From assembly GCA_963835575.1 (NCBI GenBank), contig CAWIGG010000004.1, forward strand, positions 640,001-704,000: a stretch of 64,000 nt of DNA, given 5' to 3'. Source of the stretch: an uncultured Spirochaetota bacterium (GTDB lineage Bacteria; Spirochaetota; Brevinematia; Brevinematales; JAOACQ01). A program made the position numbers. This document shows, piece after piece, positions 3,001 to 6,000 of this stretch; the stretch's first letter is position 1, and every line of letters starts with the position of its first letter.

Positions 3001-6000
3001 ACCTGCCCGGTCAATGCAATCATAGGTATGGAATCCATATAAGCAGTCGCGATGCCTGTTACCAGGTTTGTCGCCCCTGGTCCGCTTGTGGCAAGGCAAA
3101 CCCCGACTTTCCCTGTTGCTCTCGCATATCCGTCCGCCATATGCGCGGCTCCCTGCTCATGCCGGACATGGATCAGATTTATATCCTTTTCATCATATAA
3201 TTCATCAAATAATGGTATGACTACACCGCCGGGGTAACCAAAGATCGTATCAACGCCTTCCTTTTTCAAGCTTTCAATTAAAATCCTCGCACCATTTAAG
3301 ACCACTGCCGACCTCCTTAAAAATAACCGGAGATATATTAAATAATAAAATAAAGATTGTGTCAAACTTTAATTCATACCATCCGGAACCTGAAGTTTAT
3401 AATCCATTATTGATTAGAATAATAATAGAAGAGAAGCTGACCAACCGATATGCCGCTGTCATCAATCGGAATATTTCTCGGCATAAAGAGCTTAAAGCCT
3501 TTTTTGTCGAGTTCCTGATAAATAATCGTTAAAAAATGAGGATGCTTAAAATATTCCCCGGCTAACACAACCTTTTTCTCCTTATGTTTTTTAGAAATCT
3601 TTTCAATAAGCTGTGCTGTCGCTTGTGAAATTGATAATATAACATTACTGATAAGCTGCTGTGCTTCAACCTTAGCCAATATCTCTGAAATCACTACTTT
3701 AAACAGCTGATAAGTATCCACTAAATATTTTCCGTCTTCTTCTATTATTGGGATATCATACGCTTTTCCCGTAAGTTTTTCAACAATTGACTGATCCATC
3801 ATATTTTCAAAGTATTCAAAATCATACGTCGCTTCTTCATAAAAAATGATTTCTCCCAAAGCAGCGATAATATGGTGCATACTCGATGAAAGCGAATAGC
3901 TGATATTTCCCTGATTGATCGCATCAAAAATATAACTGTAATTCGGATTATCCTTGATATGCTTGATGAGAGGCAGCTTTATCGATTCCAGATCGGTTTT
4001 AGTAACTTCCTTCAAAACAGCTAAAGCAATCCTCCAGGGCTCAATATTCGCAATATCCCCGCCGGGAAGCGGAAGAGGTTTCCATCCACCCGCTATTTCC
4101 AGGCTTCCAAGGCTTCCATAAAGAACTTCACTGCCCCGGATCTGATCACTGTCATCATAGCTGATGCTGTCATATACTATTCCAATGCTTTTTTCTTTTA
4201 ATAAATCATTATCATAGAGAACGTTAGCCATATGAGAAAAAATATGATTGACGCTATTAACAACCGGAAACCTTCTTGTATAATCCGATATCATAGAATA
4301 ATTATTATAATCTTTCAGTATTGTAATGTTCTTAAACTTGCCATGCCCTATGATTGAGTTTACCATTATATCCATGGCATCTATTTCATAGAGGTTATCC
4401 AATTCACCAAAATTAGGCGATATGGTTATCTGGTTGTCTTCAAGATAGGATATAGTAAAATCTTTTTCATATCCAAGTGATAAATACTGCTTTTTCTGAT
4501 CTTTTTGATCAATTTCAATGCCATAATAAGAAAAAGGTGAATACGAAACCGGGATCAATTGATTCATACAATAAATATTAAAAGTAGGGCAAAAATCACC
4601 CGTTATTTCAAAAACTTCTTTTTTCCCCGACAGTTCTTCTGATAAAATAAGATAATCAATATTATTATTTTCACTTTTTATTACGGGAAAAACGTTTTCT
4701 TCAAAAAATTTCTTTAAAGCTTCTGTTGCGCACAAACAAACATAAAAAAACCCTCCCTTTTTTGTTATATTACTCATTCCGATTTTAGTAGGAGATGCAA
4801 AAAACGCCATGAACTTTTTTGTTATCGCCTGCGGACTTACTTCAAAATATTTGGTCAGAGTCTTCTCATCAAAAAATAAAATTGTGTTTCGTTCTGCATT
4901 TCTGCTCTTTGATATATCAAGAAGAACGGTAAAGATCCTTCCGGAGGGAAATTTGAGAAATATCGGCTTCATTATAACCTCGCTCATATATTTTAATAGC
5001 TATTTTATTTAAATCAAGATTTAACATAATAAAACTTTCTATAAGGAAACATTTTTCTATATATGGTTTAATACAATGATCTTCTTAGTTCGTTTTTATT
5101 TTTATTATTAATAAATCATTTTTTGGATTTATATCATATCCTTTTGAATAGAATTTTTTTGCTTCTTCTTTATTGCCCATTTTCTCATAGATCATGCCTA
5201 TGTGGTAATAAATTTCATCCAGTCCTTCCTGGCTCCTTTCCTGTGAAATCTGATATAAGATCTGATTAAATATTTCAAATGATTTGTTATAATCCTCTTT
5301 TTGGAAATAAATCCAGCCGAGGGTATCCAGATAGGCGAAATTTTCGGGATGCGATAAAAGTGAAAGATTGACAAGGCGGAGCGCCTCATCCAGTTTTGTT
5401 TTTTCAATAGCGTATATATAAGCAAGAAGATTATTCATTTCTGCGCTGTGCTCATCATACTTAATACCATTCTCCAGGTATTCCATTGCCTTTTTTGTAT
5501 TCTTCATTTCAAAATAGCTTGTTCCCAGAAAGAAATACAGCTTCGCTTCCTTTCCGTCCGCTTTTAACGCTTCTTCAAAATCCCGGATTGCTTCAGTATA
5601 CCTTTTGTTTTCAAAATGGATCAAACCGGAATAAAAATAAACCTGAAAAAGATCGCTTTTCTTGCCGGCATCTTCTTTTGCCTTTTTCAGCATTTGCCCG
5701 GCCATTTCCATATTATTAATTCTGTAATACATGTCTGAGATTCTAATCAATGCCTGTATTTTAAACTCATCGCTGGCGGGATGCTGAAGATATTTATTAT
5801 AGAATATAATTGCATTTGTATAATCGTTCTTATCATCATAAAGCGAACCGATCAGCCAGTATACAGACGGAATGGAATTTGTATTATCCTGCAGTATTTT
5901 AAAATACTGTATTGCCATATCGATTCTACCGGCTTCCTTCGCTTTATTCCCGATAAAAAAAGCCTGCTGAGTGGCCTTGATATGGTCTCCTATCGCTTCA

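Follow-up and report, generated by a model that had tools for sequence, protein, structure and literature searches.

The gene examined here lies on the reverse strand of a 64,000-nt stretch of an uncultured Spirochaetota genome (G000, 94% complete); this stretch, which starts at C4:640001, is referred to below as the window. The open reading frame (g02624; 3407..4972 (-)) encodes a 521-aa protein, P0001, with the length and position given in the initial annotation, and the ATG at 4972 is favoured as the putative start over another in-frame ATG, at 4987, by a GAGG ribosome-binding-like site (4978..4981 (-)) placed 5 nt ahead of the former. The gene is flanked by a TPR gene and ilvB: M50 peptidase and TPR genes in the same orientation lie upstream (5085..7642 (-)) and ilvB-ilvN lies downstream (1120..3365 (-)), both being common to genus g1 and taken as context only. 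Right after ilvN, the window carries a DUF772 transposase gene (2-1003 (-)), where the relatives G020-G023 have holA.

Pfam searches matched P0001 to PF17788 (aa 159-253) and PF22521 (aa 264-512), and the HypF profile TIGR00143 aligned only over its positions 382-740 of 741, in line with the partial match reported initially, its score of 129 bits falling short of the cut-off of 466. Profile searches of G000 revealed no second HypF; its other matches to HypF profiles were a separate acylphosphatase, Sua5, TsaD and a CmcH/NodU-like gene. A split HypF with its missing parts encoded elsewhere in G000 was rejected, since only the separate acylphosphatase was found (a 95-aa ORF, the sole match to that domain) and no zf-HYPF; across the class, zf-HYPF was seen only in family f7 and in none of the 23 genomes that carry the gene (hereafter, carriers), confirming the reported loss of the zinc fingers. 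The CmcH/NodU-like gene, encoding a 606-aa carbamoyltransferase (G000:C5:429873-431693 (-)), is situated less than 12 kb from sua5 and tsaD.

Domain architecture and active-site motifs

The structure of P0001 was modelled with AlphaFold2 from a 30-member alignment (mean pLDDT 89.4). Residues 1-521 of the model aligned to residues 215-750 of HypF (PDB 3vth; 492 residues, rmsd 3.3, Z 33.2), a span that includes the YrdC-like domain. Residues 1-159 were also folded alone (pLDDT 86.9), and the resulting model matched 3vth 215-398 with a middling score (Z 7.4, rmsd 4.5, 143 aligned), followed by E. coli YrdC (1hru; Z 6.6) and TsaC2 (Z 6.1). The top 12 of 17 rows in this comparison were chains of the YrdC/RibB fold (HypF, E. 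coli YrdC, YciO-type, TsaC2, Sua5-type, TobZ-type and RibB), after which scores dropped to Z 2.3. Sequence-only searches gave a weak profile match to YrdC (3%; reversed control 0.6%), no Pfam family at E<=1 for the N-terminal domain of P0001 and nothing meaningful for those of 17 members; Foldseek gave no match at E<=0.001. On these models, with the two fold tests agreeing, the N-terminus (aa 1 to ~150; 4523..4972 (-)) is a shrunken YrdC domain, predicted to be dead in its motifs. The candidate of a new N-terminal domain was thereby rejected, and with it the earlier view of a new 150-aa N-terminus in a protein that had lost acylphosphatase, zinc fingers and YrdC alike; relative to HypF, the losses are confined to the acylphosphatase and zinc fingers.

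Motifs were counted in an alignment of 36 family members merged with 49 canonical HypFs. In the YrdC part, 2 of 31 HypF-invariant columns were kept, and the residues corresponding to Ser334, Arg247 and Arg387/388/390 (numbering of the reference P0035) were kept in 0/36 members. The HypF adenylation motifs of the KxR...SxN type (KGxGG, TSxN and RRxRG in HypF) do not occur in the family; residues of this type are needed for adenylation by YrdC, according to the accessible part of PMC9654439.

The Kae1/ASKHA-like domain (aa 159-516; 3425..4498 (-)), defined by the two Pfam matches, keeps 22 of 44 HypF-invariant columns, and mean identity within the family peaks round its cleft (0.51 for aa 236-375 vs 0.31 for aa 1-150). 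The HxxxH motif at 4232..4246 (-) comprises His243 (34/36; Asn or Thr in family f3) and His247 (36/36), and Asp268 (36/36) lies within DSISYD (4154..4171 (-)). Two adjacent aspartates at 3458..3463 (-) follow: Asp504, which is new and stands where HypF has Asn (34/36), and Asp505 (33/36; Asn in family f5). His243, His247, Asp268 and Asp505, which belong to the 22 HypF-invariant columns kept, are the residues that we take to be equivalent to the four metal ligands of HypF, and the HxxxH...D...D arrangement is, as judged from the alignment, the predicted metal site of the family. Alanine mutants of the metal ligands of TsaD are described as inactive in the part of PMC7913687 that was available. 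Several residues named invariant in the initial annotation were reassessed on this basis: His247 and EPWR are indeed kept in 36/36 members, Asp504 is replaced by Gly in G032 and G033 and is the neighbour of the ligand equivalent Asp505, and the PGG element reads PGH or PGN in G031-G033.

The nucleotide motifs of this domain are likewise replaced. DSISYD takes the place of the glycine-rich DGxGxG loop, which was found in 49/49 canonical HypFs vs 0/36 family members. MHHIIA (3863..3880 (-)) replaces GRLFD, with the ribose-binding Asp kept in 0/36 members and a new invariant His367 in 36/36, and GEYFKH (3542..3559 (-)) replaces GGVFQN of the adenine pocket, the second Gly being kept in 1/36 and the Asn in 10/36. 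Matches to a GGxxxN pattern in 33/36 members were left out of the count, as they were spurious hits to PGGDIAN. By our comparison, the Asp of HypF GRLFD is equivalent to that of GEAxD in TsaD; in TsaD the equivalent Asp binds ribose and the Asn binds adenine (PMC7913687, as far as the source was accessible). New invariants in the family also include Glu374 and Ser226 (36/36 each). A control set of 31 Kae1-only HypF-like proteins (355-420 aa, including some fragments and several sequences on contigs >200 kb) kept DGxGxG in 28/31, GRxFD in 29/31 and GGxxxN in 29/31, the first two being found in 0/36 members of the family. Stand-alone Kae1-only HypFs of ~375-390 aa (P0094, P0095, P0101, P0111 and others), some on contigs >200 kb, have intact motifs, and 13 of the 16 tested form one clade. 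Taken together, the nucleotide motifs of both the YrdC and the Kae1 domain are replaced at the level of sequence, which suggests a loss of the corresponding activities; the protein announced as a stand-alone Kae1-type enzyme is better described as a two-domain YrdC-Kae1 protein whose adenosine and phosphate motifs have been replaced.

Distribution, hydrogenase genes and gene context

The HypF-derived gene was detected as a single copy in 23 of the 43 class genomes, which belong to the five Brevinematales families reported initially: G000, 11/11 genomes of f1, 2/2 of f3, 1/1 of f4, 4/4 of f5 and 4/4 of f6. It was found in none of the 12 genomes of f2, and all 8 genomes of f7 have a full-length HypF instead. 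Searching 401 sampled genomes of the phylum with a profile of the N-terminal domain returned the same 23 carriers, one copy each, and none of the other sampled spirochaetes (23/401). All 15 GTDB loci of the family are titled Brevinematales, Brevinematia or Spirochaetota/Spirochaetes. A search of 1.84 billion representatives yielded ten full-length members (513-525 aa; 530-788 bits), followed by three fragments and then by HypF at no more than 192 bits, and the ESM Atlas returned only HypF clusters. A quick tree built from 88 rows placed the family in one clade on a long stem of ~1.5 changes/site, with internal branching that follows the families. Descent from the HypF of f7 was considered and found no support, this long-branch clade not grouping with f7 in quick trees. 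The open frame is full-length in 22/23 carriers, the copy of G016 being split over two contig ends, and dN/dS values of 0.048-0.105 in the seven unsaturated of nine pairs were like those of neighbouring enzymes.

The presence of HypF is taken to mark [NiFe]-hydrogenase maturation; the usual partners of HypF were sought in the carriers. HypD was found in 0/23 carriers vs 8/8 genomes of f7, and HypE above cut-off in 0/23 carriers and only in f7 (7/8); tblastn of G000 with HypD and HypE of G038 detected neither. Eight carriers (G026, G028, G029, G030, G031, G032, G033 and G034; G031 and G032 being single-contig genomes) yielded no [NiFe] large subunit (PF00374), HypC or HypA. All six genomes listed initially as lacking [NiFe]-hydrogenase are among them; the seventh, G027, has an intact group 4-type large subunit. 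Between genomes without [NiFe]-hydrogenase, dN/dS was 0.068-0.084 (G028/G029, G031/G032 and G032/G033), indicating selection as strong as elsewhere. The suggested role outside canonical [NiFe] maturation is thus well supported, and more strongly than originally argued, by the absence of HypD and true HypE from all 23 carriers and by these ratios.

The other 15 carriers have [NiFe] large subunits, with both CxxC motifs kept in 9/9 sequences read. In 13 of them HypC occurs within a frame of 433-444 aa, which is missing in G016 (73% complete) and G025 (57% complete). The G000 frame, located outside the window (L055:7734-9047 = G000:C2:1359733-1361046 (-)), joins HypC to a HydE-like radical SAM domain (TIGR03956 239.6 bits, cut-off 254.6), keeps the N-terminal MCYAIPG and is accompanied by a separate true HydE. 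The fusion frame closes the group 3b hydrogenase operon in G013, G014, G015, G018 and G019, and a search for its relatives returned 2083 at E<=1e-60 out of 8000 candidates. HydG was above cut-off in 21/23 carriers vs 1/20 non-carriers, and the [FeFe]-hydrogenase HydA was present in 22/23 carriers. Among 80 metagenome loci of the fusion (46 of them at least 10 kb), a group 3b large subunit was encoded in 41 and HydG in 35; the HypF-derived gene, any HypF, HypD and HypE were found in 0/80. Membership of the HypF-derived gene in a HypC-HydE module was rejected on these 80 loci and on the eight carriers that lack the fusion. Our literature search found no description of a HypC-HydE maturation route, and the portion of PMC9431212 at hand shows none. 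The class itself offers a natural contrast for this idea, with eight genomes having HypC, HypD and full HypF without HydG vs 13 having the fusion and HydG without HypD or HypE.

Several further features of these genomes were recorded. G000, which has no HypD, HypE or full HypF, contains a group 3b [NiFe]-hydrogenase operon (G000:C4:572965-577373) and a group 4-type one (G000:C2:1042261-1052342); the CxxC motifs of both are intact, and both operons come with maturation proteases of their own. G026 (94% complete) has three [FeFe]-hydrogenase genes, and neither HydG nor HydE was found in it; HydA occurs in 6/12 genomes of f2, with HydG above cut-off in 0 of those six. HypA of G013 and G015 (L057:7827-8069 (+) and L058:8436-8678 (+)) is only 80 aa long, matching profile positions 1-69 of 112, and its zinc-finger part is apparently absent.

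Gene order was read at 21 loci, plus G016 and G034. A gene for a YegS-type lipid kinase lies directly upstream in 10/23 carriers, that is, in all genomes of f3, f5 and f6; its GGDGT motif is intact, and the gap to the HypF-derived gene was -4 to 10 bases in the eight pairs measured. The two genes are probably co-transcribed in these three families. A second YegS-type kinase gene follows downstream in G031-G033 of f6. YegS was present in 21/23 carriers vs 0/20 non-carriers, counts that are confounded by kinship and by the small genomes of f2, and HydG tracks the HypF-derived gene equally well. It was not found in G015 (95% complete) or G027 (99% complete), and G020 and G021 have only a distant paralogue. 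In 13/23 carriers, including all 12 of family f1, yegS is unlinked; in G000 it stands next to lipid genes of its own, and the neighbours of the HypF-derived gene in f1 vary by genus. None of the 21 loci read has an adjoining maturase gene. Six genomes from families f3, f4 and f5 have, directly after the HypF-derived gene, a homologue of a secreted-looking protein of 519 aa that belongs to no clear family (its weak FlgT_C match has E 0.063) and that in the window is encoded 10.6 kb away (15623-17182 (+)); with this second case in mind, the yegS linkage may be functional or may reflect an ancestral gene order. The adjacency noted initially in three families therefore holds, and the functional role drawn from it is kept as a lead, given the two genomes in which YegS was not found and the unlinked genes of f1.

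Interpretation and comparison with known systems

The HypF-derived family very probably does not perform the canonical job of HypF, and these free-living spirochaetes probably keep a shortened HypF, without its ATP chemistry or usual partners, for a new job outside hydrogenase assembly. Our leading, still tentative, explanation is a protein centred on a metal, whose pocket has been rebuilt and which has a new metal-dependent activity on a non-nucleotide substrate. In the ancestor of the five families, HypF lost its acylphosphatase and zinc fingers and diverged fast along the long stem, and it has persisted since then as one copy under purifying selection. The HypF reaction would no longer be possible, because the residues for YrdC adenylation and for binding ribose, adenine and phosphate in Kae1 are replaced in the alignment and because the genomes lack both its acceptor, HypE, and the scaffold, HypD. 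The site of two His and two Asp residues has been kept while new polar residues were fixed around it (His367, Glu374, Asp504 and, in most members, His366 and Glu473), and the dead YrdC domain presumably serves as a structural lid. Such a centre is predicted to hold Fe(II) or Zn(II) and could bind and convert a small anionic substrate, most likely in a housekeeping process; the sole pathway lead, a faint one, points to a part alongside the YegS-type kinase in the lipid metabolism of the envelope. HypF may have been freed for this because these bacteria probably mature their [NiFe]-hydrogenases by HydG and the HypC-HydE fusion. The fuller scenario, in which Brevinematales swapped HypDEF for HydG and HypC-HydE in building Fe(CN)2CO and rebuilt the freed HypF as an ATP-independent metalloenzyme, possibly acting in lipid metabolism with YegS, is conceivable but speculative.

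The changes of His243 in f3 and of Asp505 in f5 speak against this metal-dependent activity, given the inactive alanine mutants of the TsaD ligands, and would also fit a non-catalytic role. A pseudoenzyme, acting as a scaffold or as a metal or ligand sensor through which a partner, for instance the YegS kinase, would be regulated, much as TsaB serves TsaD, would also accord with the erosion of both nucleotide sites and with the tight coupling to yegS in 10/23 carriers; however, the invariance of His247 and Asp268, the new invariant polar residues in the old pocket and the failure to find yegS in G015 and G027 leave us doubtful of it. A stand-in for a missing TsaB or TsaD was rejected, as TsaB scored above cut-off, with a TsaD-sized second match, in 5/5 genomes tested. 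We consider it unlikely that the protein serves HydG-based cofactor routes by holding or passing iron, or an Fe-CO-CN unit, to be used in [FeFe] maturation or by HypC-HydE: the co-occurrence with HydG and HydA, the kept metal site and the hydrogenase ancestry would suit such a role, but the loci read have no adjoining maturase, no HypF-type gene accompanies the fusion in the 80 metagenome loci, the family is confined to 23 of the 401 sampled genomes and G026 retains the gene without detectable HydG or HydE.

A carbamoyltransferase resembling the one-domain HypF1 of C. necator, which would pass carbamoyl-AMP or threonylcarbamoyl-AMP made by Sua5 or a CmcH/NodU-type enzyme to a new acceptor, is close to the stand-alone Kae1 enzyme proposed initially. 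It has the precedent of HypF1, thought in the accessible part of PMC9100943 to need carbamoyl adenylate from outside, together with the kept metal site, CarB in 5/5 genomes tested, and Sua5 and the CmcH/NodU-like gene in G000. The ribose and adenine residues that Kae1-only proteins retain are nevertheless largely gone from the family, and HypE is absent, making this reading improbable. Decay without function is the least credible of all: many HypF invariants are lost and f2 is devoid of the gene, yet the frame is full-length in nearly every carrier, purifying selection matches that of neighbouring enzymes and the tree follows the families.

Our literature search, with most subscription papers outside its scope, found no description of this family, and databases label its members 'hydrogenase maturation protein HypF', a label that is wrong where HypD, HypE and, in eight cases, the [NiFe] enzyme are absent. 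Although narrow in scope, being confined to one order of spirochaetes, the family illustrates cleanly how an ancient carbamoyltransferase scaffold of two domains can lose both of its nucleotide sites while its metal centre is kept under strong selection, and it may therefore hold a new reaction.

Compared with HypF (TIGR00143; PDB 3vth, 4g9i and 3tsp), the family shares the YrdC-Kae1 architecture over its whole length, the HxxxH...D...D site and the PLPGG..EPWR segment, whereas it lacks the acylphosphatase and zinc fingers, has replaced nucleotide motifs, shows 17-18% identity in structural alignments, and is encoded outside hyp and hydrogenase operons in genomes without HypD and HypE. Like HypF1 of C. 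necator and other Kae1-only HypFs (~375-390 aa), it is N-terminally truncated with the metal site kept (PMC9100943, in the part available); unlike it, those proteins have no YrdC domain at all and keep DGxGxG, GRxFD and GGxxxN, and HypF1 is encoded alongside HypCDE in a hyp operon, while the present family keeps a dead YrdC domain and forms its own clade. TsaD/Kae1 and its inactive paralogue TsaB share the ASKHA fold (Z ~17-20) and the HxxxH...D metal motif, but the equivalents of the ribose Asp and adenine Asn of TsaD are lost in the family, and TsaB and TsaD are separately present. The O-carbamoyltransferases TobZ, CmcH and NodU also combine Kae1 and YrdC domains (Z ~14-15), but in the reverse order (PMC9654439, from the section accessible), and G000 has its own such gene. 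By these comparisons, the HypF-derived family is a descendant of HypF and not a HypF.
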